A stretch of DNA of 64,000 nt. Origin: an uncultured Hyphomonas sp. (GTDB lineage Bacteria; Pseudomonadota; Alphaproteobacteria; Caulobacterales; Hyphomonadaceae). The DNA is taken from contig CAYGKE010000004.1 in the NCBI GenBank assembly GCA_964350465.1, forward strand, positions 20,616 to 84,615, in the 5' to 3' direction. Both the position numbers and the translations under genes were made by a program. Position 1 is the stretch's first letter. Every line of letters begins with the position of its first letter. This document shows positions 17,021 through 34,868 of this stretch, in pieces. The notes below the pieces were generated by a model that saw only the letters and a list, made by a program, of their open reading frames with translations, made no database searches and was not told the origin of the DNA.

Positions 17021-17022
17021 CC

Positions 17023-18417: not shown

Positions 18418-19691
18418 GCCCGCAAGAACGGTTTGCCTTTTACAAAGACCGGATTGCGCGCTTCAATCCGGGTCTGAATGCTTTCATCCATTTGCGTCTT
18501 GATGAGGCGAAAGCGGAGGCCGAAGCAGCAGAGCGCCGCGCCGAAGCTGGTGCACTTCTCTCGCCAATTGATGGCTGGTGCATTGCGGTAAAAGCAAATA
18601 TCGCGGTCGCGGGCCTGCCGCATCATGCAGGGATTGGCGCCTATAAGGATGACATTGCGGCGGCGGATGCCGAGGTTGTCAGACGCCTAAAGGTCGCTGG
18701 CGCGATCATCCTCGGCATCATCAACATGCATGAAGGCGCGCTTGGTGCCACGACAGACAATGAAGTCTTTGGTCGGACGCAAAACCCCTGGCGCGAGGGT
18801 GTAACGCCCGGCGGGTCATCAGGTGGATCGGGTTGCGCGGTTGCTGCTGGTCTATGCGATGCGGCGCTCGGCTCTGATACAATGGGCTCGGTCAGAATTC
18901 CATCTGCCTATTGCGGCATCCAGGGGCACAAGCCAACAACCGGTCTTGTGCCGGATGATGGCGTTTTGGCTTTGTCCCACACGCTCGACCATGTCGGCCC
19001 GCATGCGCGGCAGGTCAGTGGTCTTGCGCAGATTCTGGAAGTGCTTGCGGGAAAGTCGATGAGTATCCCCATCCCCGATCTTGATCAGGCGAGTTTTGGG
19101 GTCTGGCACGGAACCGGCCAAATCGAATGCGCTCAGACCGTAAAGGATGGGTTCCGCAACGCGCTAGAAACACTCGGCGACAGTTTACAGATCAAGATTG
19201 AGCCACCCGCCTATGCCTACGGAAAATCTCGCCGGGCGGGCCTCCTGATCTCAGAAATCGAGGGCCACGCAATCCATGTCGAGCGCCTAAAAACGGATCC
19301 AGAGGGGTTCAGTCAGACGTTCCGAAAACTCCTTGAATGGGGCGCGGCGCAATCCGCCCAAAAGGTCGATGCCGCCTATGCGCATATCCGCAATATAAGG
19401 GAGGCCGCCGGAGCGATCTTCGAGAAAGTCGATTTCGTCCTGGCCCCAACTGCGCCGCAGCTCGCTTTCGCATTCGACGAGGAAGTGCCCGCCAATCAAG
19501 CTGACTTTACAGCATGGGCCGATTTTGCGGCGCTGCCTGCGACAGCAATCTATACGGGGCTTAGCGAAACCGGTTTACCATGTTCAATGCAGGTCATCGG
19601 GCCAGAAGGCAGAGATGCCGAAACACTGGCCGTGGCGGCTGCCATGGAAGCACGGATCGGTCTGCCACCAATGCCGCCAGGGTTTGACTAG
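18414..19691 (+). CDS. Amidase-signature family amidase
   Basis: AVKANI, PGGSSGGSG, GSDTMGSVRIP (Lys-Ser-Ser triad). Confidence 0.9.
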   Translation: MSPQERFAFYKDRIARFNPGLNAFIHLRLDEAKAEAEAAERRAEAGALLSPIDGWCIAVKANIAVAGLPHHAGIGAYKDDIAAADAEVVRRLKVAGAIILGIINMHEGALGATTDNEVFGRTQNPWREGVTPGGSSGGSGCAVAAGLCDAALGSDTMGSVRIPSAYCGIQGHKPTTGLVPDDGVLALSHTLDHVGPHARQVSGLAQILEVLAGKSMSIPIPDLDQASFGVWHGTGQIECAQTVKDGFRNALETLGDSLQIKIEPPAYAYGKSRRAGLLISEIEGHAIHVERLKTDPEGFSQTFRKLLEWGAAQSAQKVDAAYAHIRNIREAAGAIFEKVDFVLAPTAPQLAFAFDEEVPANQADFTAWADFAALPATAIYTGLSETGLPCSMQVIGPEGRDAETLAVAAAMEARIGLPPMPPGFD

Positions 19692-20467
19692 AGCGTGAAT
19701 TTTGGTGGCCGTTTTTCTAGAAAGGCTTTGTAGCCATCCTTGAAGTCGGCATTTGAGAACCCTTCCAGAAACAGCGCTTCAGCTTCGGCCTGATCATCGA
19801 TCCAGCCGGATTGCAGGCCCCGTATCATCTTTTTTGTCGCACGCGTGGACCATTGCGAGATCGCAGCGATCTGCTCGCCAAATTCGCGTGCCGTCTGCAG
19901 CGCCTCACCTTTCGTGGCTAGGCGATCAATCAAGCGCATAGATTTGGCCTCTTCAGCCAAAAAAATGCGCCCGGTAAACAGAATGTCCTTGGTTGCGCCG
20001 GGTCCGATTGCTTGCAACAGGCGGCGCGTATCACCGGCCGGATAGACCAAGCCAAGTTTTCCTGGAGTGACACCAAACTTGCTGCCCTCGGAAGCGACAC
20101 GCAGGTCGCAGGCCATGGCGAGACTGACCCCGCCGCCAACACAGGCCCCGTCAATCGCGGCAATGGTCGGCTTGGGACAGTCCTCGACGGTGCGCAATGC
20201 TGCATCAATTCTCTGTCCCGCAGCCTTGGCGCTTTGAGCTGTCGCATAGATGGTTTCAAATTCGGATATGTCCGCGCCCGCTGCAAAAGCGCCTGCCTCA
20301 CCGCCATGTAAGATCAGGACTTTGACATCGGGGTTGGCTGTCGCTTGCGCCACAAGCTTCGGGATTGCTGACCACATCTCGACACTGAGCGCGTTGCGCT
20401 TGGCGGGTTGGTTGAGGACGATTTCGGCAAAGGGCGGCGCAAGATCTAGGCGGATTGAAGCGGTCAC
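19688..20467 (-). CDS. Enoyl-CoA hydratase/isomerase (crotonase) family
   Basis: KRNALS, FAAGADISEF, GACVGGG, ACDLR. Confidence 0.9.
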   Translation of the reverse strand: MTASIRLDLAPPFAEIVLNQPAKRNALSVEMWSAIPKLVAQATANPDVKVLILHGGEAGAFAAGADISEFETIYATAQSAKAAGQRIDAALRTVEDCPKPTIAAIDGACVGGGVSLAMACDLRVASEGSKFGVTPGKLGLVYPAGDTRRLLQAIGPGATKDILFTGRIFLAEEAKSMRLIDRLATKGEALQTAREFGEQIAAISQWSTRATKKMIRGLQSGWIDDQAEAEALFLEGFSNADFKDGYKAFLEKRPPKFTL

Positions 20468-21888
20468 ATGGCATCCTCGGAAAAGGCCTGTATCGCGGCC
20501 GGTGCGCCAGTATTAGCGATCAATGCCTTGCGCCTCAAGAAGCGCTGGAAACCGGCTGGACCCATCCGGCTGCCGCCCATGCCGGAGAGTTTGAAACTGT
20601 GCTTCTCGGCTTCATGAAACTGCGCCGTCAGTGCCGCATCGTTGAGGCTGACACCGCCGGCATCTATCTGGCGACCGATCGCCTCGGCCTCCTCAAGTGT
20701 GCCAGCAAATACGGCTGCCGAAAGACCATATTCGCTGTCATTGGCTTTGGTGATGGCCTCTTCAATTGTATCGAAAACCAATACAGGCATGATCGGGCCA
20801 AAGGTTTCCTCGGTCACGACTTTCATCTCATGCGTGGCATCGGCAATCACCGTTGGGCGTAGCCAGAGGCCACCGCCATGCGTTTCGATCTCGCCGCCGG
20901 TCAGGATGCGAGCGTCTTTTTCTTTCGCATCCTCAATGTGCGCGCGCAGAATGTCGGCCTGTTTGTCAAAGATGATCGGCCCGATCTCGCCTTGCGAAAT
21001 GTCAGGCCAGTTCAGCCGCACAGCCTTGGCTTTTTGGGTCAGGCGTTCGACAAAAGCTGCGTAGAGTGGCTTCGCCACATAGATGCGCTCAATCGATTGG
21101 CAGGCTTGGCCAGTGGACAGCACGGACCCGCGCAAAGCGGCATCCGTTGCCAAGTCAAGATTGGCGCTTTCCGTAACGATCAGCGGGTCTTTGCCACCAA
21201 GCTCCAGAAAAGCCGGGATCATGTTGGCGGCGGCCCCCGCAGCAACTTTGCGGCCCGTTGCGACCGAACCGGTAAAACAGATCGCATCAACAGCATTGAT
21301 CAGCGCCGCGCCTGTCTCTCCGTCCCCCTGAACGAAGGTCAGAACATCACTCATGCCGGCCTGCTCAATCGCGGTAAGGAGTGGGTCAACAAAGCGAGGT
21401 GTCACTTCCGAAGGTTTGATCATCACTGTACAACCCGCGAGCAGAGCTGGGATCGTATCGATCATGCTCAGCGTCAGTGGAAAATTCCATGGTGAGATGA
21501 CGCCGACCAGTTCATAGGGAACAAATTGCGGCGCATGGCGGATGGCCGGGTTTGATCGTCCCTCGGTCCAGCCAGTTGGCATTAGGCCCGGTGCCTGCGC
21601 CAGCCAGCCATGAATCGCGCCCGCAGCGCCTTTCACTTCCATAAGCGCGATGCGGCGGCGGCCCGTATCAATTTCCAGGGCTGCCGCAATCGAATGGGCA
21701 TGTTGATCAATGGCACGTGCGAGATTGGCGAGCTTGTTGCCGCGCTGCTCAAGCGTCATGGCCCTCCAACCCGGTGCCGACCCGCGCAAATGGTTCGCGG
21801 TCTCGTTGATCTCTTCCAGCCTTGCCGCTGCAAAGGAGAAATCCTGCTCGCCTGTGCGGGGATTGCGCGCCTGTAGCTGTCTGGACAT
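20464..21888 (-). CDS. Aldehyde dehydrogenase
   Basis: ISPWNFP, FTGSVATG, LELGGKDP, GQACQS, EETFGP. Confidence 0.92.
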   Translation of the reverse strand: MSRQLQARNPRTGEQDFSFAAARLEEINETANHLRGSAPGWRAMTLEQRGNKLANLARAIDQHAHSIAAALEIDTGRRRIALMEVKGAAGAIHGWLAQAPGLMPTGWTEGRSNPAIRHAPQFVPYELVGVISPWNFPLTLSMIDTIPALLAGCTVMIKPSEVTPRFVDPLLTAIEQAGMSDVLTFVQGDGETGAALINAVDAICFTGSVATGRKVAAGAAANMIPAFLELGGKDPLIVTESANLDLATDAALRGSVLSTGQACQSIERIYVAKPLYAAFVERLTQKAKAVRLNWPDISQGEIGPIIFDKQADILRAHIEDAKEKDARILTGGEIETHGGGLWLRPTVIADATHEMKVVTEETFGPIMPVLVFDTIEEAITKANDSEYGLSAAVFAGTLEEAEAIGRQIDAGGVSLNDAALTAQFHEAEKHSFKLSGMGGSRMGPAGFQRFLRRKALIANTGAPAAIQAFSEDAM

Positions 21889-21891
21889 GTT

Positions 21892-23478
21892 TCAGCCAAG
21901 CCCCAGCGCGCCAGGGTTTACAATGCCCTTGTCATCGACAGCCTGCTTGATCGCTTCGAGTAGTTTCCACGTCGCTTCGTCCCGGCCTTCGCGATAGGGG
22001 TAGGTTCGTCCAATCTGGAAATGCGCCGCGCCATGCTCCGTAAAGACGTCAAGGACGGCTTGTCGCGCTTTCTGAACGACCGCCGTGGCTTCCGGATTGG
22101 CTTCAAACCGTGTGACGCGTTTGGCGACATCCGGTTCAACTGTTTGCTCGTGTATGTCCCAGATCTCTTCCGGCCAGATAAATACCGGCTCGATCAGATA
22201 GCCGGTCGTGCCGAGACTGGTGATGAGATACCCGGTCAGGATGTCATGCATGTCCAACTCATCGCGCATGGCGTCGAAGCGGGTTTCGATGTCCCGCCAG
22301 GTCGCCTCGCCCTCCGAAACTGGAACAATGCCATGGATCGGGACCCAGCGCTCGCCTTGTGGCCCGAGGATGTTGTTCAATGGACCAAACGGATTGGCGC
22401 GTATGATGGTTGGTATAGAGTTTTCGATCTCCTTGCCGCCAAGATCCTTGGCGATCTTTTTCAGAACCGCCATATCTTCTTTGACGCCGGTCTTTGATCG
22501 CCCCTCGACCGAAACGTGCAGTGAATAGTCGACCTTATCCATGAAGCCGCGCCCGGCCATGGCAACTTTGGCCCCGGCTTTCAGGCCCTTCAGAATTGAG
22601 CCTTGCCCCTTGATGACATTGGTCAGGGACTTCGCGTCGGCCAGGATGCTGGCGCGTGCCATGCGCACCTTGGTCAGGTTGGGGTCAAAGCCGTAGATTT
22701 CGCAGGCAATATCCTCGCGCATCATCCTAGCCTGTGCCTGTGCGCAGGCGTCGCGTGTCGCAAACTCAAAGCTCGCATGTTCGTCTGCTTGCGGTAGAGG
22801 GATCAGGCGGAACGTGATCTCTGCCTTGTAGCCAAGCGTCCCGGCATCACCGCAGAATAGACCTGTCAGGTCGGGTCCGTAATGCCGCCAGAAAGGCTTG
22901 CCATTTTTGGTGCCGCCTGTGCCGGTCCGCACCAGTGTGCCATCCGCCAGAATGACCGTGACAGAAAGGACGCTATCGCCTGTCGTGCCGTATTTGCCAG
23001 CGCCGAAGAAGGCGTTGTTCTGTGACAGGCCGCCACCAATCGTTGAGGAGATGCCGGAAAGCGGCCCCCAGAAAGGTGTCCGCACGCCCTGCTTCTTCAG
23101 CGCCTCATAGAGTTGCGCCCAGGTCACGCCGGCTTGAACCGAGACATACATGTCGTCTGTATTGATCTCGATAATCTGGTCGAGTTTCGACATATCGAGA
23201 ATGCCGACATTGTCGCGGTCGGGCGTATAGCCTTTGGTATAGGACATGCCGCCACCGCGCGGGTTGAGCGATATTCCGCGCTCATAGGCGGCACACACGA
23301 CCGCCTGCAAATCCTCTAGGTTGGACGGCGACGCAACAAAGGCCGCAGTGTCACCCTTGTGCCAGATGTCCTGGCTCATCAGCTCGCGTGTGGCAGTATC
23401 CTCCTGCAGACCGTTTTCGCCCAGTTTCTGCTTCAGAACGCCGGGCAGGTCGCTGATGGATTTGATATCGTCAGGCAT
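21892..23478 (-). CDS. FAD-binding oxidoreductase (VAO/PCMH, D-lactate dehydrogenase-like)
   Basis: PRGGGMSY, VQAGVTW, STIGG, DAGTLG, HFQIGR, DDKGIVNPG. Confidence 0.85.
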   Translation of the reverse strand: MPDDIKSISDLPGVLKQKLGENGLQEDTATRELMSQDIWHKGDTAAFVASPSNLEDLQAVVCAAYERGISLNPRGGGMSYTKGYTPDRDNVGILDMSKLDQIIEINTDDMYVSVQAGVTWAQLYEALKKQGVRTPFWGPLSGISSTIGGGLSQNNAFFGAGKYGTTGDSVLSVTVILADGTLVRTGTGGTKNGKPFWRHYGPDLTGLFCGDAGTLGYKAEITFRLIPLPQADEHASFEFATRDACAQAQARMMREDIACEIYGFDPNLTKVRMARASILADAKSLTNVIKGQGSILKGLKAGAKVAMAGRGFMDKVDYSLHVSVEGRSKTGVKEDMAVLKKIAKDLGGKEIENSIPTIIRANPFGPLNNILGPQGERWVPIHGIVPVSEGEATWRDIETRFDAMRDELDMHDILTGYLITSLGTTGYLIEPVFIWPEEIWDIHEQTVEPDVAKRVTRFEANPEATAVVQKARQAVLDVFTEHGAAHFQIGRTYPYREGRDEATWKLLEAIKQAVDDKGIVNPGALGLG

Positions 23479-23492
23479 AGTTTGAGAGTCTC

Positions 23493-24155
23493 CTAGAATG
23501 AGGTCGGCGTCCAGAGGCCGAAGAAGGCGGCGAGCAGCAAGAGCAGCCAGATGGCCATTACCAGCGGCCGGGCGCGCTTGAGAGTGAGGGCAAGACTGGC
23601 TTCGGCAGCTTCGGCATTCTTACCCGATAGTCCCATCAGTGCAGGACCAAGCGGGCGCAATACAACGCGAATGAACAGACCGAGGCCAATACAACCCGCA
23701 AGCAATAGCATCTTGATGGCCAGAAAGGCGGGGATGTTTGTTTCGCCGAACAGGACCCAGATTGCTGTGGCGGTTAGACCAATGATCAGGAGCCAACGGA
23801 TGGCGAGATCCAGATTCTTCATCCAGCCCGGCGCGCCGCCATGGCTGAGATGTAATTTCCAGGCGAGAGCCAGCCAGACCACCGCGGCAAGGCAGATGGC
23901 GATGGTGACTGGCCAACCCAGACTCATCCATGACTTGCTCTCGGCAAGCACAAGACCTGTTGGCAATGCCAGGATCAGCGCGCTCCGCGGTGCCATATCG
24001 ACATCACCGACAATCTTGGCCGCCATCATACGCCGATCGGCACTCACGCCAGGCCGGGTCAGGAAATGACTTGTATAGAATGCGCCCAGGTCGCCGCCCA
24101 GCCAGTAGACAAAGACGAGAATATGCAAGAGTGCAAAAAGCGCCTGATCGGTCAT
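23493..24155 (-). CDS. Integral membrane protein of unknown function (about 5-6 TM)
   Basis: HILVFVYWLGGDLG first helix, multiple hydrophobic segments; GGAGG RBS. Confidence 0.75.
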   Translation of the reverse strand: MTDQALFALLHILVFVYWLGGDLGAFYTSHFLTRPGVSADRRMMAAKIVGDVDMAPRSALILALPTGLVLAESKSWMSLGWPVTIAICLAAVVWLALAWKLHLSHGGAPGWMKNLDLAIRWLLIIGLTATAIWVLFGETNIPAFLAIKMLLLAGCIGLGLFIRVVLRPLGPALMGLSGKNAEAAEASLALTLKRARPLVMAIWLLLLLAAFFGLWTPTSF

Positions 24156-24163
24156 GCGATCCT

Positions 24164-24193
24164 CCGATTTAAAAGATATATCATTTAAATCGG
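24164..24193. promoter_or_regulatory. Operator A copy 2 inside a 30-bp palindrome (CCGATTTAAAAGATATATCATTTAAATCGG)
   Basis: 14 of 15 pairs complementary; lies between the GntR#2 stop and the RBS of the membrane protein/FAD oxidoreductase/ALDH/crotonase operon. Confidence 0.8.
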
Positions 24194-24212
24194 TTTAGGC
24201 GAGACCCTTGCG

Positions 24213-25010
24213 CTATTTTTCGGTCTTCCAGTCTGTTTGAGCGGCATCATTACGGGTCAGGCGCATGTGATATTCGAAACGATCAGCGCGGTAATGGGCC
24301 GTAATGTCCTGAACCGGTCGTCCACTCTTGTCGCTCATGACGCGGTGGATGCGTAGCAAAGGTGACCCGGGCGCAACGCCGAGCGTTGCTGCAACCGCTG
24401 GTTCCGCTGCTGCCGCTGAAATGCTTTGTTCGGCTTCGACAGGTCCATGACCTGCCTTTTCCAGAAGCTTGATCAAGGACTGGCTTGTCAGCTCGGACTC
24501 CTCATAACCTTGAGCGACATCATAAGGTATATAGGTTATAAGATGAGAGAAGGGTTCGCCGTCCATCGACCTTACGCGAACGATCCTCTGCACACTTTCC
24601 CCGGCTTTCAGCTTCAGCGCGCCGCGAATGGCAGGACTGGCTGTGCCCACTGTGCAATCGAGCAGTTTAACGCTGGTCTCAACACCCATGCGCGTCAGTC
24701 CGTCGATCATTGTCTCAAAGCTGCCTTTGATCATCGACCCGTTGGCATCATAGGTGACGACGGTACCAATGCCCCGTTGACGTCTGACCAGACCGGCGAC
24801 AGCGAGTTCGTTCATCGCGCGCTTTACAGTGATCCGCGAAACGCCCAGCATTTGCGTTACGTCCTGCTCGGCTGGCAGATGATCACCATGCGCGAGGCCA
24901 CCATCGAGGATTTTCTTGCGCAGAATATCATAGATCTGCTGGTATAGCGGCGTTCCTGATTTCTCGTCGATCTGGCTGGGTTTGAGTTTCAGCATGGGAG
25001 TCCGGGCCAT
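24213..25010 (-). CDS. GntR family regulator (HutC subfamily, UTRA domain) #2
   Basis: PLYQQI, LPAEQDV, VSRITVKRAM; C-terminal UTRA ending YRADRFEY. Confidence 0.9.
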   Translation of the reverse strand: MARTPMLKLKPSQIDEKSGTPLYQQIYDILRKKILDGGLAHGDHLPAEQDVTQMLGVSRITVKRAMNELAVAGLVRRQRGIGTVVTYDANGSMIKGSFETMIDGLTRMGVETSVKLLDCTVGTASPAIRGALKLKAGESVQRIVRVRSMDGEPFSHLITYIPYDVAQGYEESELTSQSLIKLLEKAGHGPVEAEQSISAAAAEPAVAATLGVAPGSPLLRIHRVMSDKSGRPVQDITAHYRADRFEYHMRLTRNDAAQTDWKTEK

Positions 25011-25086
25011 TGTGTTTGTCTTGCCAGTTCAGTTGATTCAGAGTGCAAGGACACAGATGCCTGCAATCTAGGCGCGAGTATAGAGG

Positions 25087-25509
25087 CTATTCTCCTAGCC
25101 CCTTGGAAAGATCATTCGTTGGCCCGCCGGCGGCGCGGTGAGCGACAGAGTCAGGGCTACCCCAGATCTTGCCGCCAATATACTGGCCGATCGAGTTGGA
25201 AAACTCCTTGTATTCAATCGATTCATACATGCCGCAGGTCAGGTAGGGGTCGCCATTCATCAGCGCCTGTGCATCGCTAATATCGTCGGCGAGGACTAGA
25301 AAAACCGAACCAACCAGCGCTTCTCCGCCCGGCTCTCGGATCGGGCCGGCCGTAATATAGCGCGTCCAGTTGTCCTCGACATGCTGCAAATGCCCGGCAA
25401 GATGATCAAGGCGCGGTTTGGCACTGTCAGGACCGTCCCGGCAAATCACGAGATAGCATTTTTGCGGGAGCCGAGGCACTTCAGGGGGCTGCTTGGGAAA
25501 GGTCGGCAT
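25087..25509 (-). CDS. YciI family protein
   Basis: CRDGPD..PRLDHLAGHL, AGP, GSVFLV, DPY. Confidence 0.78.
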   Translation of the reverse strand: MPTFPKQPPEVPRLPQKCYLVICRDGPDSAKPRLDHLAGHLQHVEDNWTRYITAGPIREPGGEALVGSVFLVLADDISDAQALMNGDPYLTCGMYESIEYKEFSNSIGQYIGGKIWGSPDSVAHRAAGGPTNDLSKGLGE

Positions 25510-25518
25510 GGTCGTCTC

Positions 25519-26634
25519 CTATTTCAAAACGCCGCTGGCAACGAGGCGATCTATGACAGCTTGCTGCTGGGCGATAGCGTCAGCGCGTTCAATCATCTGA
25601 GCATCAGGTGTGCGATTGGCCGGCGCATGATTGGCTTGCCCGTATCCGCTTGCAAAAGCCGCATTAGGAAGGCGCGACAGCGTATTGGTCATGCCTGTCT
25701 TACGCCGGGTTTCCCGCAGCGCGCCAATGTCCAATACGGCATTTGCGTTCAGGGTTTCGCCCTGGTTCGCCTCTGCGAGACTGCGGCCATACCAGTCGAG
25801 CACGATTGACATGCCGTCAGTTGATGCGCTGGGCACTGGCGTACCGATTATCTCGGCGCTGTTGGCGGAAACGACGTAGGCAATATTCTCGATTGCACGT
25901 GCCTTCTTTGTAATGTGCTTTGGTGTCAGCGTGGGCGCGCCGACTTCGCTGGTTGGGTGGCAGAATATCTCCGCGCCCTTAAAGGCCTGCATCCGGGCAA
26001 TCTCTGGATAGAGAATTTCTTCACTGGCAATCGATCCAAGCACGCCAATTTCCGTGTGTGCGACCGGGAAAACGGCATCCTCGCCATAGATATCCAGATA
26101 CTTGTCCCAGACGTCATAAGGGCTTGGTGTGTACAGTGAAATCATCCTGCGATAGCGCAGCACAATATCGCCATTAGGGCCGTAGATCACGTTCGATTGG
26201 AAATAGAGATCCGGAAAGTTCGGATCAGTCTCGTAATGGTTGGAGCAAAGATAGATGCCAAAAGTCTGGGCGAGGCTTGCTAGCTTATCTGGAAAAGCGC
26301 CTTCCATGGGAATAGCGGCCTTATCCTGCCATTCTTCGCGCGTTTCCCCGAGTGGGAACCCAGTCATCCAGTATTCAGGCAAGACAACCAGTTTTACATC
26401 ATAGCCATTGAAGCCTTTCAGAAAGCCCCGGGCTGAGCCGATTTGGCCCCGGACACGGCCAATTGCCAGCTCTATTCGTGCGTGTGCGTCTTCAATCGTG
26501 CTGTCCTGATTGACCGCATCGCAAACAGTTTGAAGGGCAAGAGCGGTATAGCGCATTGATGGGTTTCCTTGGGCGAGAACGGGAGCAGCTAAAGTCGCCG
26601 CTCCGGCACTGAGAAGAAGTTCACGGCGGGTCAT
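25519..26634 (-). CDS. Nitrilase/carbon-nitrogen hydrolase-fold protein, Tat signal, non-canonical triad
   Basis: MTRRELLL..VLA-Q Tat signal; LVVLPEY; YRR in place of YRK; IASEEILYPE in place of ICYD..FPE. Confidence 0.8.
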   Translation of the reverse strand: MTRRELLLSAGAATLAAPVLAQGNPSMRYTALALQTVCDAVNQDSTIEDAHARIELAIGRVRGQIGSARGFLKGFNGYDVKLVVLPEYWMTGFPLGETREEWQDKAAIPMEGAFPDKLASLAQTFGIYLCSNHYETDPNFPDLYFQSNVIYGPNGDIVLRYRRMISLYTPSPYDVWDKYLDIYGEDAVFPVAHTEIGVLGSIASEEILYPEIARMQAFKGAEIFCHPTSEVGAPTLTPKHITKKARAIENIAYVVSANSAEIIGTPVPSASTDGMSIVLDWYGRSLAEANQGETLNANAVLDIGALRETRRKTGMTNTLSRLPNAAFASGYGQANHAPANRTPDAQMIERADAIAQQQAVIDRLVASGVLK

Positions 26635-27533
26635 GAGGCGTCCTGAAATGTGCGTATACTATCAGCGGCGGTCATTAGCTTTAGGCCTGTGCTTGTAGCG
26701 AGTGCATTGAGGATTTTACGTACGGCATGTATTCGAAACGGCTGCCCAAGCACATAGGGGGTCATCGTGAAGGCGAGGGCGGCGGCGCCCTCTTTATCGT
26801 GCAGGTCGACGCTATACTGCGCCGCTTCGATAATCTGCTCAGCCCAATCGTCTTCGGATTGCGAGCGATCAAGCAAGAGTTTGAAATCGCCAAGCTCGCC
26901 ATAGTGGGGCAGCGCGGTGATCGAACCGTTTGCTGTTCTCATAGCAAGCGGACGCTGGTCGGCCTCCCAGTCGAGTACAGTATTGAAACCTGCCTCAGTG
27001 AGGAGATCGAGCGTGCGATAGCTCTCGTTTCGCGCCGGGCTCATCCAGGTCGTGGCATCTGGGAACACTGATCGCGCATCGGCGATGAGCGCTCGCTCTT
27101 CAGCCTCGCTCAGGCCATCATGATGAATATGTGCGGTAGATACACCGTGGGCCGCGACCTCGTGCCCGCCCGCTTTAATGGCATCGATGAGTGGCGGATA
27201 GCGTTTTGCAATCTCGGCATCTACCGCGAACGTGGCCGTCACGCCCGTTGCCGAAAATTCGCGCATTAGGCGAAAAATGCCGATACGGTTGCCGTAATCC
27301 CGCGTCGTGAAATGGCGCAGATCCGGATAGGGCGTCTTCATCGCGCCGGGGTGTTTGAACGGCACGGAAGGCGGGTTCAGAGGAAAAAATTCGACTGGCA
27401 CAATGATTGTGGCGATCGCTTTGGTCCCATCTTTCAAGTAAACCGGCGCGCGTCTGTCGGCAGGCTCCCAGCCATAGTGCGGGTTATCCATGCCAGGCTT
27501 ACGGTGTGGGTAAATCAGATAGTCATCAGGCAT
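26631..27533 (-). CDS. PuuE-like CE4 hydrolase paralogue (conserved His apparently replaced)
   Basis: RDYGNRIGIFRL, EVAAHG, MTPYVLGQPFR; ATG 27533 follows the upstream stop, preferred over the track's 27668. Confidence 0.8.
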   Translation of the reverse strand: MPDDYLIYPHRKPGMDNPHYGWEPADRRAPVYLKDGTKAIATIIVPVEFFPLNPPSVPFKHPGAMKTPYPDLRHFTTRDYGNRIGIFRLMREFSATGVTATFAVDAEIAKRYPPLIDAIKAGGHEVAAHGVSTAHIHHDGLSEAEERALIADARSVFPDATTWMSPARNESYRTLDLLTEAGFNTVLDWEADQRPLAMRTANGSITALPHYGELGDFKLLLDRSQSEDDWAEQIIEAAQYSVDLHDKEGAAALAFTMTPYVLGQPFRIHAVRKILNALATSTGLKLMTAADSIRTFQDAS

Positions 27534-27537
27534 TTTG

Positions 27538-28482
27538 CTAGGAGATTGGGACAAAGCCGGTTCCTCCCGTCGCGACACCTCGGGCTGCGACATCCGCCAA
27601 TGTCTGATCCCAATAGTTCTCGCAGTAGAATTCAGCGATCTCTGCGCCCGTTGTGAACCAGACATCATCGCGGTGGCTGCAAATATGCCTCAGCGCCTCT
27701 TCAAACACGCGCAGGCGATGCGGTTGGCTGACCAGATAGGCGTGCAGTGGGATACACATCACGGTTCCGGACTGTTCGCCTTCCTTCAGCAACTGATCGA
27801 AATGCTTGATCAGCAGATCTGTGTAGCGCTGCGGGCTCCAACCCTGGACCGAATATGTGATGACATCATTCACTTCCAGCGAGTAGGGCATCGACACCAG
27901 CTTTCCGGTCTTGGTCTTGATCGGCTGGGGCTGATCATCCTGGAACAGATCGCACGTATACCAGAAATCATGCTCGGCGATCAGGTCCAGCGTATGCTCG
28001 GTATGCGTCAGCGCCGGGGCGAGATAGCCGCGGATACGTTTGCCGGTTGCACGTTCAACTGTTTCGATACTGTCTGTTAGTACCGCCACTTCCTGCTCTG
28101 GCGACATGCCATACGAATAACGCGTGTTATAAATGCCGTGGGAGAAGAACTCCCAGTTTCTTTCGTTCACGGCTTCGATGATTTCCGGGTGGTGATCAAC
28201 AAGCCCCACCGAGAGCGAGATACTCCCGCGTAGATCATACTTGTCGAACAGATCCATCAGCCGCCAATGACCGACCGTATTGCCCCAGGTGCGCTGTGAA
28301 TAGGCGACGACATCCGGGTTGCCACGTGGCCAGCCGGGACGCTTGTTATTATGTGGCGGCTGAAATTCGTAATACTCTATGTTTGGTGCGATCCAGAAGG
28401 CGAGCTTCTTGCCGCCCGGCCAGACGATCTTGGGCCGTCCTTCATAGGGCCAATAATCATAGAGGTTGGGATCAGCGTGCAT
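27538..28482 (-). CDS. PuuE-like CE4 hydrolase
   Basis: WPGGKKLAFWIAPNIEYYE, EFFSHG, IPLHAYLVSQPHR. Confidence 0.85.
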   Translation of the reverse strand: MHADPNLYDYWPYEGRPKIVWPGGKKLAFWIAPNIEYYEFQPPHNNKRPGWPRGNPDVVAYSQRTWGNTVGHWRLMDLFDKYDLRGSISLSVGLVDHHPEIIEAVNERNWEFFSHGIYNTRYSYGMSPEQEVAVLTDSIETVERATGKRIRGYLAPALTHTEHTLDLIAEHDFWYTCDLFQDDQPQPIKTKTGKLVSMPYSLEVNDVITYSVQGWSPQRYTDLLIKHFDQLLKEGEQSGTVMCIPLHAYLVSQPHRLRVFEEALRHICSHRDDVWFTTGAEIAEFYCENYWDQTLADVAARGVATGGTGFVPIS

Positions 28483-29177
28483 CAGCCCTGATACCTCGCA
28501 ATCGCCTCATGTACCTCGCTGACCGGCACAACGTCGGCATATTTGATCAGCAAGTCGGTCAGGTTCGCAAAGTGATAGCTCTCATGCTTGTCGGCGACGC
28601 ATTCCTCCGGGACGATGGTGCGGTAGCCATAACTTAAACTATCAACCGCAGTAGCGCGCACGCATCCTGACGTTGAGCCGCCGGTAACAACAACCGTGTC
28701 GACCTTGTGCCATGTCAGGAAACTGTTGAGCGGCGTTTCAAAGAAAGCGGACGGCATACGTTTGGTGTAGACCGCATCCACAGCCGGATCGATGGTCAAA
28801 CGATCATCAAACGCGGTGCGCTCTGAGCCATATTTGATATTCTGCAGGCTGTCCGGCGTATCCGTTCGCGTGCCCCAGACGCCGGCATCAGCGGCATTGT
28901 CCATATAGGCAACATGCGTCCAGATCACTGGCAGACCTTTTGAACGTGCGGCGTTTGAGATGGCATCAATATGCTCCATCTGACGAGGGTCCGTGATGTA
29001 GGCGGTCTTGTAGAGATCAGGCCGTGTGTACGCTTTTTGCGGGTCAACATTCACGATAGCGAGCTTGTCGCCAAACCCGAACCGCGCGCGCATAGGGTTG
29101 GAGCGAACCTCTTCGAATATCTCACGCGCTGTTTTGTCTGAGGTTACCATGGTCGGTTGGGACATATCGTGGGTCAT
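28482..29177 (-). CDS. Isochorismatase/cysteine hydrolase (maleamate amidohydrolase / N-carbamoylsarcosine amidase-like)
   Basis: Asp-Lys-Cys triad: VNVDPQ, TKRMPSAFF, STSGCVRATAVD. Confidence 0.88.
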   Translation of the reverse strand: MTHDMSQPTMVTSDKTAREIFEEVRSNPMRARFGFGDKLAIVNVDPQKAYTRPDLYKTAYITDPRQMEHIDAISNAARSKGLPVIWTHVAYMDNAADAGVWGTRTDTPDSLQNIKYGSERTAFDDRLTIDPAVDAVYTKRMPSAFFETPLNSFLTWHKVDTVVVTGGSTSGCVRATAVDSLSYGYRTIVPEECVADKHESYHFANLTDLLIKYADVVPVSEVHEAIARYQG

Positions 29178-29208
29178 AGGAATTCCGCTTGCATTCTATC
29201 TCTCATTC

Positions 29209-29224
29209 AAATGATATATCTTTT
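29209..29224 (-). promoter_or_regulatory. Operator A copy 3 (AAATGATATATCTTTT on +)
   Basis: Exact reverse complement of copies 1 and 2, in a divergent intergenic region. Confidence 0.75.
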
Positions 29225-29253
29225 TGCGCAAGTCTAGCCAATTGGAGGAAGTT

Positions 29254-29688
29254 ATGAAGAGTTTTATTCTGGGTGCGATACTTGGCTTGGCAGGCGGGGT
29301 TGGTATTGCTGCTTGCGTTGGCGTTCAGCCGCAGATCGCGCAAGGACAAGAAACTGCGCCAGAACCACCAGCTTACATGATCGTGCTTGGTGAAGTGCAT
29401 GACCGCCCGGCCTTTATGGAAGGGTACGCAGCCAAGTTACCGCCCATCTACGAGCAATATGGGGGTCACTATATCGCAATTGGGGGAGGTCCAGGCATCG
29501 AAGTCCTCGAGGGTGACTATGCCCCGCCGAGCTATGTGATCAGTAAATGGGAGAAGGCGCAGGACGCGCGGGATTTCTGGAACAGCCCGGAATATGACGC
29601 GCTCAGGCGCGCACGCATCAACAATAATTGGGGCACATTCGACGTCCTATTGGTGAACGGTCTCCCAAACCCTGCTGCCGCTGAATGA
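29254..29688 (+). CDS. DUF1330 family protein with signal/lipoprotein peptide
   Basis: GGAGG-ATG 29254; GIAA-C; AYMIV, YGGHYI, VLEG, FWNSPEY..LR. Confidence 0.75.
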   Translation: MKSFILGAILGLAGGVGIAACVGVQPQIAQGQETAPEPPAYMIVLGEVHDRPAFMEGYAAKLPPIYEQYGGHYIAIGGGPGIEVLEGDYAPPSYVISKWEKAQDARDFWNSPEYDALRRARINNNWGTFDVLLVNGLPNPAAAE

Positions 29689-29732
29689 AGCGTGCTGCCT
29701 CAGGTGCGGCAGATTTACAACATTGCCGCATT

Positions 29733-29748
29733 AAATGACCGGACAAAG
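29733..29748. promoter_or_regulatory. Operator B copy 3 (AAATGACCGGACAAAG)
   Basis: One substitution in the TGTCCGGACA core; abuts the -35 of the receptor promoter. Confidence 0.6.
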
Positions 29749-29777
29749 TTGGACATCTCGCGCAAAAGGTATATCAT
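29749..29777 (+). promoter_or_regulatory. Putative sigma70 promoter of the TonB-dependent receptor
   Basis: TTGGAC-17 nt-TATCAT. Confidence 0.55.
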
Positions 29778-29779
29778 TT
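29764..29779 (+). promoter_or_regulatory. Operator A copy 4 (AAAAGGTATATCATTT)
   Basis: 15/16 match; covers the -10 hexamer. Confidence 0.68.
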
Positions 29780-29839
29780 GTGCGGGAGATAAAAAAAGCC
29801 CGGTCAAAAACAATGCCTAAATTTGAGGAGATTTTGGTG

Positions 29840-32002
29840 ATGAAAAAGAATTTGATAGGAACAGCGGCGGCTTTTGCCATCGCAGCCGCATGGTCTGCAC
29901 CAGCGGTCGCGCAAGACTCAGGCGAAACGGATGCGCGCCGCCTAGGCACAGTAACCGTCACATCGCAGCGCACCGAGGAAAATCTGCAGGATGTCCCGAT
30001 TGCCGTAACAGCGCTTTCGGCCGTCCAGCTCGAGGACAAGCAAGTCGCGGATATGCTTGATCTGCAATTTCAGGTCCCGAACATCAACCTTGCGACAAAT
30101 ACGGGTACAGCCAACGCGGCCCGTATTTTCCTGCGCGGTGTGGGTGAGGATGAAAGCCGCGGCGCGGTCGATCAGGCGGTCGGAATCTATGTGGACGGAG
30201 TTTATATCGGCCGTTCCGTAGGTTCACTCTTTGACGTGGTTGACCTGGAGCAGATCGAAGTCCTGCGTGGCCCACAAGGCACGCTTTATGGCCGCAACAC
30301 GATTGGCGGCGCGATCAAGCTGACATCGGTCAAGCCACAGTTCGAGAATAGTGGTGACATCCGCACAACGATTGGCGACAATGGCCGCTTCGACCTGCGC
30401 GGTACCGGAAACATGCAGCTTGGCGAGAATACTGCTTTCCGTGTCACTGGCCTACTGCGCGAGCGTGATGGCTTCCATACCGTCATTCCGAATGGCGGCA
30501 ATGCCGGTCAGGGCAAGGACGTTGGCCGCCTGCACATTGCGTCCTTCCGCGCCAGCCTCCTGCACAATTTCAATGAAGACTGGAGTATTTTCGTTGCGGC
30601 GGACTCAACGATTGATCGTTCTGATCCAATCCCTGATTCAGCAGCGCCGCCAAATGATGCCGACAATAACCTGTTCACCATCGAACCTCTGGGTGCCACC
30701 GTATGTCCGCCAGGAAATGGCCCTTTCACCCCGATTGGGTGTTTCACGGCCTATGACCAGCGGGCTAAAACGCAAGGCATTTCTGCGAATATCGAGGGCA
30801 ATCTGGGTAATTTCACCTTCAACTCTTTGACCGGATACCGGCAGTTGGATGATGAACTGTCGACCCGCATCGGCTTCCCGTTCACGCAGATGACCGATCA
30901 GGATCAGCTCAGCCAGGAATTCACCTTGGCGTCCAACCATGACGGTCCCTTCAATTATGTTGTCGGCTACTATTACTGGAGCGAAGACCTTCAGCTGGAC
31001 TCGGTCTTTGTCTTCCCGTTCACCCTGAACTCGTCGACTGATTCCCATGCGATCTTCGGGCAGGGTACATATGAAGTGAATGACCAGTTGTCTCTGACAG
31101 GCGGTCTGCGCTTCACATCCGAATCCAAGGACTTTGACGGCGAGGCACTCTTGTCCGGTTTGTCACGGACCGATTCAGCTGACTTCGATAATGTCAGCTA
31201 TACAATCGGTGCCGATTATCGCTTCAATGAGTCTGTTCTGGGCTATGCCAAGTTCTCAACTGGCTTCAAGTCGGGCGGCTGGTCGCCGGATGCGTTCAGT
31301 CCAGCAGCTGTGTTCCTGCCTGTCCGCGAAGAAACGCTCGATTCGTTTGAGATTGGCTTCAAGTCGGACCTGTTTGACGACAGTCTTCGCCTGAACGCCG
31401 CCTACTTCTTCAACGACTATACCGATCTTCAAATCGGGGCGACGGTGCCAGGTCTCGGCTTTACCCGGTTCAATGTTGAAGGTGTTGAGATCCAGGGTCT
31501 TGAATTCGAGGCAACCTTGCAAGTGACCGACAATTTCCAGCTGAACGGTAATCTTGGCATCCTCGACGGGGAGTATACCGATCTTAGCACGTCATCGGCG
31601 GGCGGCTTGACCAATAGCGGCGCCACGCCAGCTTGCGGCGGCGTTGTTTCAATCGATTGTGCGAAAACACTCAGCCTCAAGAACGCGCCGGAATACAAGG
31701 GCAGCATTGGTGCCCTATTCAGCGTGCCAATGGGCTCAGGTGAGCTGATCGCCTCGGGTGACATCAATTTCGAGGATGAGAGCTGGAGCCTTGTTGCCAA
31801 CAGCCCGGATCATGCCCTGATCGATGTGCCAACCATCATCAATGCCCGGATCAAGTATCAGTCCGATGCTGGCTGGTCGGCGGCAATCTGGGGCAAGAAT
31901 ATCGGTGATGAGGAATATTACCGTGCTTCCTCGGCTGGTTCCTTCACAGCCTATGCCTCCGAACCAGCAACCTTTGGTATTGATCTCGGCTACGAATTCT
32001 AA
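29840..32002 (+). CDS. TonB-dependent receptor
   Basis: Signal peptide, TonB-box-like TVTVTSQR, plug motifs (IFLRGVG, LRGPQGTLYGRN), C-terminal Phe; ATG 29840 after GAGGAG. Confidence 0.93.
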   Translation: MKKNLIGTAAAFAIAAAWSAPAVAQDSGETDARRLGTVTVTSQRTEENLQDVPIAVTALSAVQLEDKQVADMLDLQFQVPNINLATNTGTANAARIFLRGVGEDESRGAVDQAVGIYVDGVYIGRSVGSLFDVVDLEQIEVLRGPQGTLYGRNTIGGAIKLTSVKPQFENSGDIRTTIGDNGRFDLRGTGNMQLGENTAFRVTGLLRERDGFHTVIPNGGNAGQGKDVGRLHIASFRASLLHNFNEDWSIFVAADSTIDRSDPIPDSAAPPNDADNNLFTIEPLGATVCPPGNGPFTPIGCFTAYDQRAKTQGISANIEGNLGNFTFNSLTGYRQLDDELSTRIGFPFTQMTDQDQLSQEFTLASNHDGPFNYVVGYYYWSEDLQLDSVFVFPFTLNSSTDSHAIFGQGTYEVNDQLSLTGGLRFTSESKDFDGEALLSGLSRTDSADFDNVSYTIGADYRFNESVLGYAKFSTGFKSGGWSPDAFSPAAVFLPVREETLDSFEIGFKSDLFDDSLRLNAAYFFNDYTDLQIGATVPGLGFTRFNVEGVEIQGLEFEATLQVTDNFQLNGNLGILDGEYTDLSTSSAGGLTNSGATPACGGVVSIDCAKTLSLKNAPEYKGSIGALFSVPMGSGELIASGDINFEDESWSLVANSPDHALIDVPTIINARIKYQSDAGWSAAIWGKNIGDEEYYRASSAGSFTAYASEPATFGIDLGYEF

Positions 32003-32028
32003 GCCAGGACCAACTGACTACCATTTAG

Positions 32029-32057
32029 AAGCCCCGGCCTCGCGCCGGGGCTTTTTT
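32029..32057 (+). terminator. Rho-independent terminator
   Basis: AAGCCCCGGC-CTCGC-GCCGGGGC-TTTTTT after the receptor stop. Confidence 0.85.
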
Positions 32058-32225
32058 ATCGACTCGTGTTTTGATCCGGCTATGGCAGTATCAGACACGT
32101 TTGCTTCAAAACGTCTTATCGACTTGCGATTTCATGCCTGTGATGGAACAAGCCGGAAAGATAATGTGCGCAATCCGGGTCATGTGTGGAATAAACATGT
32201 CCGAACTGCGGATCAGGAGGAATAA

Positions 32226-33725
32226 ATGCGCCAGGTCAGTCACTTCATTAATGGTCAGATGGTTGCTGGCTCATCCGGCCGGTTCAGCGATATCTACAAC
32301 CCGAACACGGGTGAGGTTCAGGCGCAGGTTGCCCTTGCGACGGAGGCCGAAATGGCAGGCGCCATTGAGGCTGCCGAGGCAGCGTTTCCGGCCTGGGCGG
32401 CGACCAATCCACAGCGCCGCGCCCGCGTCATGTTCGAATTCAAGCGCCTGCTGGAAGCGCATATGGACGAATTGGCGGAGTTACTTTCCTCCGAGCACGG
32501 CAAGGTCATTGCAGACTCACGCGGCGATGTGCAGCGCGGGCTTGAAGTCGTCGAGTATGCCTGCGGCATGCCGCAGGTCCAGAAAGGCGAATATACAGGC
32601 GCTGCCGGGCCTGGCATTGATGTCTATTCGATGCGCCAGCCACTTGGGGTTTGTGCTGGGATCACACCTTTCAATTTTCCCGCGATGATCCCGATGTGGA
32701 TGTTCGCCATGGCGATTTCGGCCGGCAACACATTCATCCTCAAGCCATCCGAGAAAGACCCGTCCGTGCCGATGCGACTGGCGGAGCTGTTCCTTGAAGC
32801 TGGCGCGCCGGACGGCGTCCTGAATGTCGTCAATGGCGACAAGACCGCTGTCGATGCCATCCTGGATCATCCCTCGATCAAGGCGGTGAGTTTTGTCGGC
32901 TCGTCAGATATTGCGCAGTACATTTACAGCCGCGGCACCGCCAACGGAACACGTGTCCAGGCCATGGGCGGGGCCAAGAACCACGGCATCATCCTGCCGG
33001 ATGCGAACATGGATCAGGCGGTGAAAGATATTGTCGGCGCGGCCTATGGATCTGCTGGCGAGCGCTGCATGGCATTACCGGTCGTCGTGCCGGTTGGCCA
33101 GAAAACAGCCGATGAGTTTATCGAGCGGATTTCCGATGAGGCGCGCAAGCTCAAGGTCGGCATCTCGACGGATGCGGACGCCCATTATGGTCCGGTTGTC
33201 TCCGCCGCCCATAAGGCCAAGGTCGAGGACTATATCCGCATCGGGGCAGAAGAAGACGGCGCGGACCTGCTGATTGATGGCCGCGGTTTCGAACTGCAAG
33301 GCTATGAGAATGGTTTCTTCATCGGCCCAACCCTGTTCGACAATGTAAAGCCCGGTATGAAAACCTATGAGGAAGAGATCTTCGGCCCCGTGTTGCAGGT
33401 TGTGCGCGCCGAAAGTCTTGAAGAAGCCGCCGCGCTGCCGAGCAACCACCAGTACGGCAACGGCGTTGCGATCTTTACCCGCAATGGCCGCGCCGCTCGT
33501 GACTTTGCCGCTTCGGTGAATGTCGGCATGGTCGGCGTGAATGTGCCGATCCCGGTGCCAGTCAGCTACCATACGTTCGGGGGTTGGAAGCGCTCGGCCT
33601 TTGGCGATACAAATCAGTATGGCACTGAGGGGATGAAGTTCTGGACCAAGATCAAGACCGTCACCCAGCGCTGGCCCGAAGGCGATATCGGCGACCAGGC
33701 CTTCATCATTCCAACCATGGGGTAG
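32226..33725 (+). CDS. mmsA: CoA-acylating methylmalonate-semialdehyde dehydrogenase
   Basis: ITPFNFPAMIPMW, AMGGAKNH, GSAGERCMA, EEIFGP. Confidence 0.93.
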   Translation: MRQVSHFINGQMVAGSSGRFSDIYNPNTGEVQAQVALATEAEMAGAIEAAEAAFPAWAATNPQRRARVMFEFKRLLEAHMDELAELLSSEHGKVIADSRGDVQRGLEVVEYACGMPQVQKGEYTGAAGPGIDVYSMRQPLGVCAGITPFNFPAMIPMWMFAMAISAGNTFILKPSEKDPSVPMRLAELFLEAGAPDGVLNVVNGDKTAVDAILDHPSIKAVSFVGSSDIAQYIYSRGTANGTRVQAMGGAKNHGIILPDANMDQAVKDIVGAAYGSAGERCMALPVVVPVGQKTADEFIERISDEARKLKVGISTDADAHYGPVVSAAHKAKVEDYIRIGAEEDGADLLIDGRGFELQGYENGFFIGPTLFDNVKPGMKTYEEEIFGPVLQVVRAESLEEAAALPSNHQYGNGVAIFTRNGRAARDFAASVNVGMVGVNVPIPVPVSYHTFGGWKRSAFGDTNQYGTEGMKFWTKIKTVTQRWPEGDIGDQAFIIPTMG

Positions 33726-33728
33726 GCC

Positions 33729-34865: not shown

Positions 34866-34868
34866 GCC

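Follow-up and report, generated by a model that had tools for sequence, protein, structure and literature searches.

A conserved nitrilase-fold family with Glu, Arg, Asp, and Ser at the catalytic positions, encoded in a catabolic operon of Hyphomonas

What becomes of a nitrilase-fold protein when both its catalytic lysine and its nucleophilic cysteine are replaced? The question is posed by a gene at 25519-26634 in a 64,000-nucleotide stretch of DNA from an uncultured Hyphomonas sp. (contig CAYGKE010000004.1); below, the window is this whole stretch and the target is the protein that the gene encodes. Reviews and databases define the nitrilase superfamily by an invariant Glu-Lys-Cys triad, and its Cys-to-Ser mutants serve as dead controls; a recent review gives Glu-Lys-Cys or C-E-E-K as the catalytic residues (PMC11732141). 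In the target, alignments place Glu, Arg, Asp, and Ser (E-R-D-S) at the catalytic positions. We found that this combination is fixed across a large family and that the target is under very strong purifying selection. We tentatively propose that the target is a C-N hydrolase that uses Ser204 as its nucleophile, a proposal to which we give somewhat less than an even chance.

RESULTS AND DISCUSSION

An intact gene with a nitrilase fold

25519..26634, minus strand: nitrilase-superfamily (CN_hydrolase) gene of the E-R-D-S family, 371 amino acids (Pfam CN_hydrolase E = 1.1e-23, AlphaFold2 model, Foldseek)

The open reading frame (ORF) starts with ATG and is intact on the minus strand; the plus-strand translation of the same interval is riddled with stops. 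Residues 76-310 match PF00795 (CN_hydrolase) with 84.3 bits, above the curated Pfam threshold of 23.2. We built an AlphaFold2 model from a 54-sequence alignment; it has the alpha-beta-beta-alpha sandwich fold and is confident (predicted local distance difference test [pLDDT] score, 86.2; predicted template modeling [pTM] score, 0.82) except at the N terminus, where pLDDT is low. Foldseek comparison of the model with the PDB gave as leading neighbors Pseudomonas aeruginosa AmiE, the formamidases of Bacillus cereus and Helicobacter pylori, Geobacillus pallidus amidase, and the PH0642 amidase of Pyrococcus horikoshii, with a probability of 1.00 for AmiE, AmiF, PH0642 amidase, Nit2/Nit3, CPA, and D-carbamoylase. 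The nitrilase fold claimed in an earlier note on this DNA thus stands on both the Pfam score and the structural matches to AmiE.

The target scored 48 to 52 bits on the NCBIfam models for formamidase, aliphatic amidase, carbamoylputrescine amidase, and archaeal nitrilase, whose cutoffs are 400 to 500; on the AmiE/AmiF equivalog models it reached 48.3 bits (NF009802; cutoff, 427) and 51.7 bits (NF009803; cutoff, 406). No NCBIfam equivalog fits any clade of the branch to which the target belongs, and source names there are generic ("nitrilase," "predicted amidohydrolase"). By fold and sequence, the target is a homolog of the nitrilase superfamily and not a canonical catalytic member; it falls within none of the named enzyme families and belongs to a large uncharacterized clade in the amidase/formamidase-like part of the superfamily.

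Residues at the catalytic positions

26374..26376, minus strand: Glu87 (GAA), equivalent to the catalytic general-base Glu, AmiE E59 (alignment and family counts)
26146..26148, minus strand: Arg163 (AGG), replacing the catalytic Lys, AmiE K134 (alignments and family counts)
26113..26115, minus strand: Asp174 (GAC), aligned with AmiE E142, the second catalytic Glu; Asp is branch-wide (alignments)
26023..26025, minus strand: Ser204 (AGT), replacing the nucleophilic Cys, AmiE C166, inside an invariant A-S-E-E (alignments)

The motifs that carry these residues are LVVLPEY (E87), RYRR (R163), and IASEEILYPE (S204, six residues ahead of P210); all of the motifs quoted in the earlier note, which had aligned them by eye, are present in the ORF. 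Three alignments concur with that reading. In a phmmer search of the PDB, the PH0642 amidase (1j31) pairs YRR with YRK and S204 with Cys146, with a 3-residue gap nearby. A profile of 54 family sequences aligned without gaps to P. aeruginosa AmiE (2uxy), pairing LPEY with FPEY, RYRR with KYRK, PyDvW with PIEGW, and IASEEILYPE with IICDDGNYPE; it maps E87 to E59, R163 to K134, D174 to E142, and S204 to C166. Alignment with hmmalign to Lys/Cys relatives from the same branch was also gapless and set LKYRK...ICYDVNFPE against LRYRR...IASEEILYPE. Since the family profile and the branch relatives place all four residues without gaps, the site is, by alignment, a Glu-Arg-Asp-Ser version of the Glu-Lys-Glu-Cys tetrad: of the Glu-Lys-Cys triad only the Glu is kept, Arg163 and Ser204 standing for Lys and Cys, and the second catalytic Glu of the C-E-E-K tetrad is Asp174.

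We found no invariant Cys or Lys elsewhere in the family alignment that could act as a substitute. Residue 239 is well conserved (288 Lys and 24 Arg; 92% and 8%), and a role for K239 at the site is possible.

Conservation across the family

A first database search returned 3065 proteins at E ≤ 1e-5, and the motifs are kept in all of the best 120 matches (68 to 92% identity), which come from Henriciella, Hyphomonas, Hirschia, Parvularcula, and others. RYRR, D[VI]W, and IASEE are also kept in a second subfamily (~47 to 50% identity), whose members come mainly from uncultured marine Gammaproteobacteria. We pooled sequences from the two database searches that had returned these subfamilies and from 80 genome loci, 313 family sequences in all. 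Arg163 and Asp174 are present in all 313, Glu87 and Ser204 in 312 each; the sole exception at Ser204 is a relative with Arg and Cys. The complete E-R-D-S set occurs in 311 of the 313, which span ~45 to 100% identity.

Relative to the nearest genomes, the mature part of the protein has a nonsynonymous substitution rate (dN) of 0.04 to 0.07 with a saturated synonymous rate (dS), giving an ω (dN/dS) of ~0.02 to 0.03; the target is under very strong purifying selection. Its cross-genome conservation (88 to 91%) is on par with that of the canonical enzymes of its operon; that of PuuE1, encoded directly upstream, is 66 to 75%. Because E-R-D-S is fixed across so large a family, the substitutions are neither strain specific nor signs of decay. 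This bears out the view in the earlier note of a double substitution in an intact gene, and its refuting condition, that homologs keep Lys and Cys, did not hold, as members of the family have Arg and Ser.

Site types across the branch

Searching 50%-identity representatives exhaustively, we obtained 1943 relatives at E ≤ 0.001. Among the best 150 of these, whose alignment was our survey of site types, this previously uncharted branch includes E-K-D-C (canonical Lys and Cys, with Asp for the second Glu), E-K-S-C, E-R-D-C, E-R-D-S, E-K-D-A, Q-K-D-A, and E-K-D-S. Asp174, YExD, [FW]F[NQ], and the HPT[SG]E loop are branch-wide, and only the Lys-to-Arg and Cys-to-Ser changes and the motif flanking the latter (ASEE, versus PCGE or CYD) are specific to the family. 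Two candidates were rejected on this basis: Asp174 as a third family-specific change, Asp being present in Lys/Cys members as well, and the invariant H226-P-T-S229-E230 loop as an alternative, family-specific catalytic center, HPT[SG]E also being found in canonical Cys-bearing relatives. The loop aligns to the region of the AmiE pocket residue Tyr192.

In neighbor-joining trees built from representatives only, with the catalytic columns removed, the main E-R-D-S family was monophyletic in 54 of 60 bootstraps and its nearest relatives were of the Arg type in all 60; an Arg+Cys protein (P0137) was its sister in 43. As the E-R-D-S family is nested within an Arg+Cys (E-R-D-C) clade, the trees place the Lys-to-Arg change before the Cys-to-Ser change. 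The existence of an Arg+Cys clade also shows that Arg can occur together with a retained nucleophile.

Other members of the branch show further departures from the canonical site. A conserved clade with Ala at the nucleophile position (P0166, P0171, P0192, P0195, P0198, P0203, P0211, P0213, and P0224) has a K-x6-K-T-r-P motif, and some of its members have Gln for the general-base Glu (Q-K-D-A); P0192 (Ala) and P0242 (Gly) bear leaders resembling signals for twin-arginine translocation (Tat). Eight proteins of 640 to 745 amino acids (P0126, P0132, P0134, P0138, P0140, P0146, P0148, and P0153) have two CN_hydrolase domains in tandem; in many, one domain is E-K-D/S-C and the other is decayed (A-Q-L-G, H-A-E-G, N-K-S-G, or E-T-A-G), which suggests built-in live/dead heterodimers. 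One locus (L005, 15181-17390, minus strand) carries an E-R-D-S gene with KYHK-type and KYKR-type paralogs beside a gene resembling those for acyl-CoA dehydrogenases. In Oceanicaulis, leader-bearing and leader-less E-R-D-S genes lie tail to tail (L063, 8047-9114, and L064, 4427-5524, both minus strand), and a second, distantly related CN_hydrolase-like gene lies ~5 kb upstream (L057, 503-1672; L065, 2361-3605; L068, 1016-2254). The product of this last gene has a twin-arginine leader (DRRRLF...), keeps Glu and Lys (FHEF and KHWK), and has Ser six residues ahead of PE (TSSVQREPE); it looks like another exported, cysteine-free nitrilase-fold protein.

The N-terminal leader and probable export

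26572..26634, minus strand: putative Tat signal peptide, residues 1-21, MTRRELLLSAGAATLAAPVLA then QG, with the RR codons at 26623-26628 (motif conservation)

The target begins with MTRRELLL, followed by SAGAATLAAPVLA and QG (an Ala-rich hydrophobic stretch and then VLA|QG), and so has the elements of a Tat signal: a motif like S/T-R-R-x-F-L-K, a hydrophobic stretch, and an A-x-A-type cleavage site. An in-frame RR leader is present in 56 of 64 alphaproteobacterial loci, with variant RR motifs in 2 more. Leader length and sequence vary among orthologs while RR is fixed, and the leader evolves faster (dN, 0.2 to 0.4) than the mature part, as signal peptides do. On PF10518 (TAT_signal) the target scored 13.0 bits against a cutoff of 22.7 and close orthologs 15.3 to 17.5; the leader of the Oceanicaulis/Glycocaulis type passes both this model (25.3 bits) and TIGR01409 (19.2 bits; cutoff, 16.7).

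The start codon lies 6 to 7 nucleotides (nt) after an AGGA and shares the sequence ATGA with the stop codon of the preceding gene. Met27 offers a second possible start, with AAGGA 9 nt upstream as a plausible ribosome-binding site. We rejected Met27 as the general start, which would leave no signal: this residue is Ala, Leu, Glu, Ser, or Thr in many orthologs that nonetheless have an in-frame M-[NT]-R-R-x-[FL]-L leader, which argues that the upstream start is used. The Met27-equivalent start does apply to leader-less orthologs such as that of Hirschia litorea, which is encoded in the same operon; there an upstream TAA overlaps the ATG of the Met27 equivalent. The leader is also absent from five other loci (L024, L029, L036, L044, and L060) and from the whole gammaproteobacterial subfamily. 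Leader-less orthologs in the same operon and the sub-threshold Pfam score of the target weigh against export and make its localization uncertain. On balance, the conserved RR leader argues that the target is probably folded in the cytoplasm and exported via Tat in this organism; the Tat export claimed in the earlier note is borne out only at the level of the motif.

Cysteine content gives an independent hint of export, though one confounded with phylogeny: the mature part of leader-bearing proteins averages 2.4 cysteines, usually the pair Cys38 and Cys130, and leader-less proteins average 5.6. Of 137 leader-bearing members, 126 have both Cys38 (26521-26523) and Cys130 (26245-26247), often with no other cysteine in the mature part, and the two may form a periplasmic disulfide; the gammaproteobacterial subfamily, with ~7 Cys overall, has Val or Thr at position 38 and Ala or Ser at position 130.

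The operon and its surroundings

28482..29177, minus strand: isochorismatase-fold cysteine amidohydrolase, first gene of the array (Pfam; PDB N-carbamoylsarcosine amidohydrolase, 3.2e-28)
27538..28482, minus strand: PuuE2, second PuuE-like gene, nearer to the allantoinase/imidase PuuE (TIGR03212, 7.5e-34; PDB 3cl6, 7.6e-25, equivalent of His259 kept)
26631..27533, minus strand: PuuE1, PuuE-like (NodB-fold) gene directly upstream of the target gene, its stop overlapping the target ATG (Pfam, NCBIfam; PDB 3cl6, 1.7e-9)
25087..25509, minus strand: YCII-family gene, 9 nt downstream of the target gene, co-conserved (Pfam)
24213..25010, minus strand: GntR/UTRA (HutC-type) regulator, co-conserved (Pfam and NCBIfam)
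19688..24155, minus strand: membrane protein (no Pfam match), FAD-linked oxidase, aldehyde dehydrogenase, and enoyl-CoA hydratase, downstream, co-conserved (Pfam and gene order)
29224..32002, plus strand: divergent DUF1330 gene and TonB-dependent receptor, co-conserved with the operon (gene order)

The target gene is the fourth in an array of closely spaced minus-strand genes (intergenic distances, −4 to +76 nt), in the order isochorismatase-fold hydrolase, PuuE2, PuuE1, target, YCII, GntR/UTRA, membrane protein, FAD-linked oxidase, aldehyde dehydrogenase, and enoyl-CoA hydratase. With a 4-nt overlap upstream and a 9-nt gap downstream, the gene is operonic, as the earlier note had it, and the whole array is kept across the Hyphomonadaceae and relatives. 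The isochorismatase-fold enzyme is most like N-carbamoylsarcosine and maleamate amidases, and its Cys motif (GxTTSGCVRATA) is intact. Taken together, the neighboring genes suggest as the substrate a small amide or ureide, either cyclic or linear. In four operons (L112-114 and L120), a signal-less E-R-D-S paralog on the opposite strand takes the place of the target, which speaks for a function in the same pathway irrespective of compartment.

The divergent PuuE1 gene is adjacent to the target gene at most loci. Directly followed by the target gene, it forms the pair that persists most widely, and this pair stands alone in about a dozen genomes (minimal loci L031-L037, L040, L043, L050, L052, L071, and L072). 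The longest ORF of PuuE1 (26631-27668, minus strand) includes an odd Arg/Ser-rich extension of 45 residues (27534-27668); orthologs and gene calls on identical metagenome contigs indicate Met46 (27533) as the likely start, which leaves a 4-nt gap to PuuE2. His259 of PuuE has been proposed as catalytic (cited in PMC11424739). Alignment to 3cl6 puts Thr (FTMTPY) at this position in PuuE1, and the T-x-T-P-Y motif is conserved in PuuE1 orthologs; with E-R-D-S, this makes PuuE1 and the target a pair of hydrolase homologs with altered catalytic residues. An obligate heteromer of the two is weakened as an explanation by a leader-bearing target ortholog without PuuE1 (L006) and by PuuE1 without the target (L111 and L116-119).

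The array is flanked by plus-strand genes at 15647-19691 and 32226-35759 of the window. On one side are genes of the PrpD/MmgE-like, PaaK-like AMP-binding, and amidase-signature types, which accompany the operon at six loci (L007, L024, L026, L029, L048, and L049); on the other are genes resembling those for methylmalonate-semialdehyde dehydrogenase, acyl-CoA dehydrogenase, and 3-hydroxyisobutyrate dehydrogenase. These flanking genes suggest a branched or C3 acyl-CoA route as the final part of the pathway. No second CN_hydrolase gene lies within the 64-kb window. A live/dead pair with a neighboring paralog was rejected for this reason, though adjacent paralogs occur in L005, L063, and L064.

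Members of the gammaproteobacterial subfamily are located elsewhere, in two of three contigs beside a molybdopterin oxidoreductase and an Fe-S subunit. At these two loci (L003, 10205-14051, and L005, 10174-13981), the signal-less E-R-D-S paralog precedes a molybdopterin oxidoreductase of ~920 amino acids, which bears a clear Tat signal (NRREFLQGGGALAAG...) and the H-x3-C-x3-C FS0 motif, and a 4Fe-4S subunit of the NarH/DdhB-like type.

A scan for promoters and terminators gave matches no more frequent than the shuffled expectation. Contigs of a relative 95 to 99% identical over 19500-32200 of the window came from a 2023 run labeled as possible RNA (X5) and cover the target, YCII, GntR, DUF1330, and TonB receptor genes; with a flat depth of ~17 and Nextera adapter ends, they are indistinguishable from DNA. 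Identical copies of the target gene occur in four biofilm metagenome runs from 2019.

Hydrolase, pseudoenzyme, or carrier?

If Ser204 is the nucleophile, it would form an acyl-enzyme (ester) intermediate, with Glu87 as the general base and Arg163 as a clamp that polarizes the carbonyl and stabilizes the oxyanion; Asp174 would position the leaving amine and the hydrolytic water. The substrate would be a small, polar nitrogen compound (an amide, carbamoyl, or imide-derived one) that the surrounding operon catabolizes, and a thiol-free site would be insensitive to periplasmic oxidation. Our analysis shows the fold, the equivalence of residues, their invariance in the family, the order of the two changes, the gene context, and the conservation of the signal motif; from there, catalytic competence, the roles of single residues, substrate class, and export are inferred. 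In favor of this proposal, all four positions are invariant and keep their type of functional group (carboxylate, cation, carboxylate, and nucleophilic XH), and Glu87 is never Gln in the E-R-D-S family, whereas the Ala-type clade includes Q-K-D-A members. The pocket motifs PEY, YExD, [FW]F[NQ], and HPT[SG]E are shared with Lys/Cys relatives in the branch; truly decayed tandem domains look unlike E-R-D-S, their replacements being nonconservative and variable. Finally, the gene sits in a tight array with amidohydrolases, dehydrogenases, a GntR regulator, and a TonB receptor. The wider proposition, that E-R-D-S is a natural thiol-free center of a new mechanistic class of C-N hydrolase, reached by Lys-to-Arg and then Cys-to-Ser, and that one lineage later gained a Tat signal and lost most of its cysteines as it came to work in the oxidizing periplasm, is one that we consider possible but more doubtful than the role of Ser204 itself.

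Several observations weigh against a nucleophilic Ser204 and favor instead a non-catalytic pseudoenzyme, whose pocket would bind a small amide, a ureide, or a partner and which would bind, sequester, sense, or scaffold, possibly with PuuE1, in the periplasm or the cytoplasm. The canonical Lys and Cys are gone, and engineered Cys-to-Ser relatives are dead: AmiE C166S served as a nonfunctional control in a growth selection (PMC5467163), and Medicago N-carbamoylputrescine amidase C158S was crystallized with ligand bound (PDB titles 5h8k/5h8l). The nucleophile position varies between Ser and Ala in a small sister clade (P0181, P0207, and P0238) and is occupied by Ala or Gly in further conserved clades of the branch, some of which bear Tat-like leaders; nucleophile-free functions are thus common nearby. 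Tandem relatives show that the branch routinely couples a live with a dead domain, PuuE1 has Thr for His259, and the operon already has ring-opening PuuE2 and, for carbamoyl or amide hydrolysis, the isochorismatase-fold and amidase-signature enzymes. What speaks against a pseudoenzyme is that the replacements are conservative and that S204, E87, R163, and D174 are invariant over hundreds of sequences, where a role in shape only would allow Ala, Thr, Gly, or Gln; moreover, the window offers no second CN_hydrolase for a live/dead pair, and neither the target nor PuuE1 requires the other to be present. We regard a pseudoenzyme as the main alternative, somewhat less likely than the hydrolase.

The same conservation would also fit a non-covalent catalyst, in which Glu87 or Asp174 activates water or abstracts a proton, Arg163 polarizes the substrate, and Ser204 is limited to hydrogen bonding, the reaction being a direct hydrolysis or that of a lyase, isomerase, or transferase. 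Families in the branch that have Ala or Gly instead of the nucleophile are themselves conserved and keep Glu and Lys or Arg, and the replacement of Lys by Arg before the nucleophile changed suggests that the chemistry was already shifting. However, we know of no precedent for non-covalent catalysis in the nitrilase superfamily, and a literature search found none; Ser is, moreover, invariant in the main family, where Ala is not tolerated. We consider such a catalyst improbable.

Still less probable, in our view, is that the target is mainly a Tat carrier that binds PuuE1 in the cytoplasm and takes it along for export by hitchhiking. PuuE1 lacks a signal of its own, is encoded immediately upstream with overlapping stop and start codons, and is the only other gene at the minimal loci. 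The pairing is not obligate in either direction, however, signal-less target orthologs keep the adjacency to PuuE1, and the invariant active-site residues would be left unexplained. The idea that the substitutions are a lesion of one strain in a decaying gene, or stem from a faulty alignment, has in its favor only the general expectation that a nitrilase homolog lacking Cys and Lys is nonfunctional; it is refuted by the 311 of 313 sequences that share E-R-D-S, the very low ω, and three concordant alignments, one of them gapless to AmiE.

Whichever of these applies, the annotations "nitrilase" and "predicted amidohydrolase" are likely misleading. The family comprises hundreds to thousands of sequences from marine and freshwater Alpha- and Gammaproteobacteria in which Arg and Ser are fixed, and an evolutionary series (E-K-D-C to E-R-D-C to E-R-D-S) is at hand. 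Were Ser204 a nucleophile, the target would be the first serine-nucleophile member of a superfamily that textbooks define by Glu-Lys-Cys. If active, the family would represent a thiol hydrolase scaffold converted to serine chemistry, of relevance to enzymology and oxidation-resistant biocatalysts, and would add a rare soluble, exported nitrilase-fold enzyme; if inactive, it would be a large conserved pseudoenzyme family with a ligand-binding pocket, encoded in an unassigned operon for the catabolism of nitrogen compounds.

Comparison with known systems

The best profile and structural matches of the target are AmiE (P. aeruginosa, 2uxy; G. pallidus, 2plq) and AmiF (H. pylori, 2dyu; B. cereus, 5g3o), which share with it a core of ~340 amino acids with a C-terminal extension, the general-base Glu, and, in gapless alignment, PEY, [KR]YR[KR], and xxx[CS][DE][DE]xxYPE. 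At ~20% identity, the target differs from them by Lys134 to Arg, Cys166 to Ser, and Glu142 to Asp, by its added twin-arginine N terminus, and by a pocket loop that reads HPTSE instead of RCQGY.

Apolipoprotein N-acyltransferase (Lnt) has a CN_hydrolase domain that works on the periplasmic side and shows the fold to be capable of acyl transfer besides hydrolysis. Like the target, if the latter is exported, it places a nitrilase fold outside the cytoplasm, but it is an integral membrane protein with a canonical E-K-C triad and a thioester intermediate and has no Tat signal. TIGR00546 matches relatives in the branch weakly (E, 1e-7 to 3e-20) and is not among the NCBIfam matches of the target itself. 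Our full-text literature search turned up no report of nitrilase-fold proteins that naturally form an Arg/Ser family, nor of any that are exported via Tat.

Closer at hand, the E-K-D-C (e.g., P0161 and P0177) and E-R-D-C (e.g., P0137, P0141, and P0197) relatives share YExD, [FW]F[NQ], Asp, and HPT[SG]E with the target, and the E-R-D-C type already has its Arg; they sit in catabolic gene contexts and differ in keeping the Cys nucleophile, in PCGE or CYD rather than ASEE. These relatives give no functional anchor, since no NCBIfam equivalog fits them and their names are at most "predicted amidohydrolase." The decayed domains of the tandem proteins (P0134, P0148, P0146, and P0153) belong to the same branch and have also lost the canonical triad, but their residues are nonconservative and variable (A/Q/G, H/A/G, and N/K/G) and they are fused to an intact partner domain, whereas the target is a single-domain protein with no paralog nearby and with invariant, conservative replacements. 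The engineered AmiE C166S and Medicago C158S proteins likewise have Ser at the nucleophile position of the same fold. They are single laboratory changes in a Lys-containing site, made as inactive controls or ligand traps; in the target, by contrast, the Ser is natural and invariant and is accompanied by Arg in place of Lys and by an altered flanking motif.

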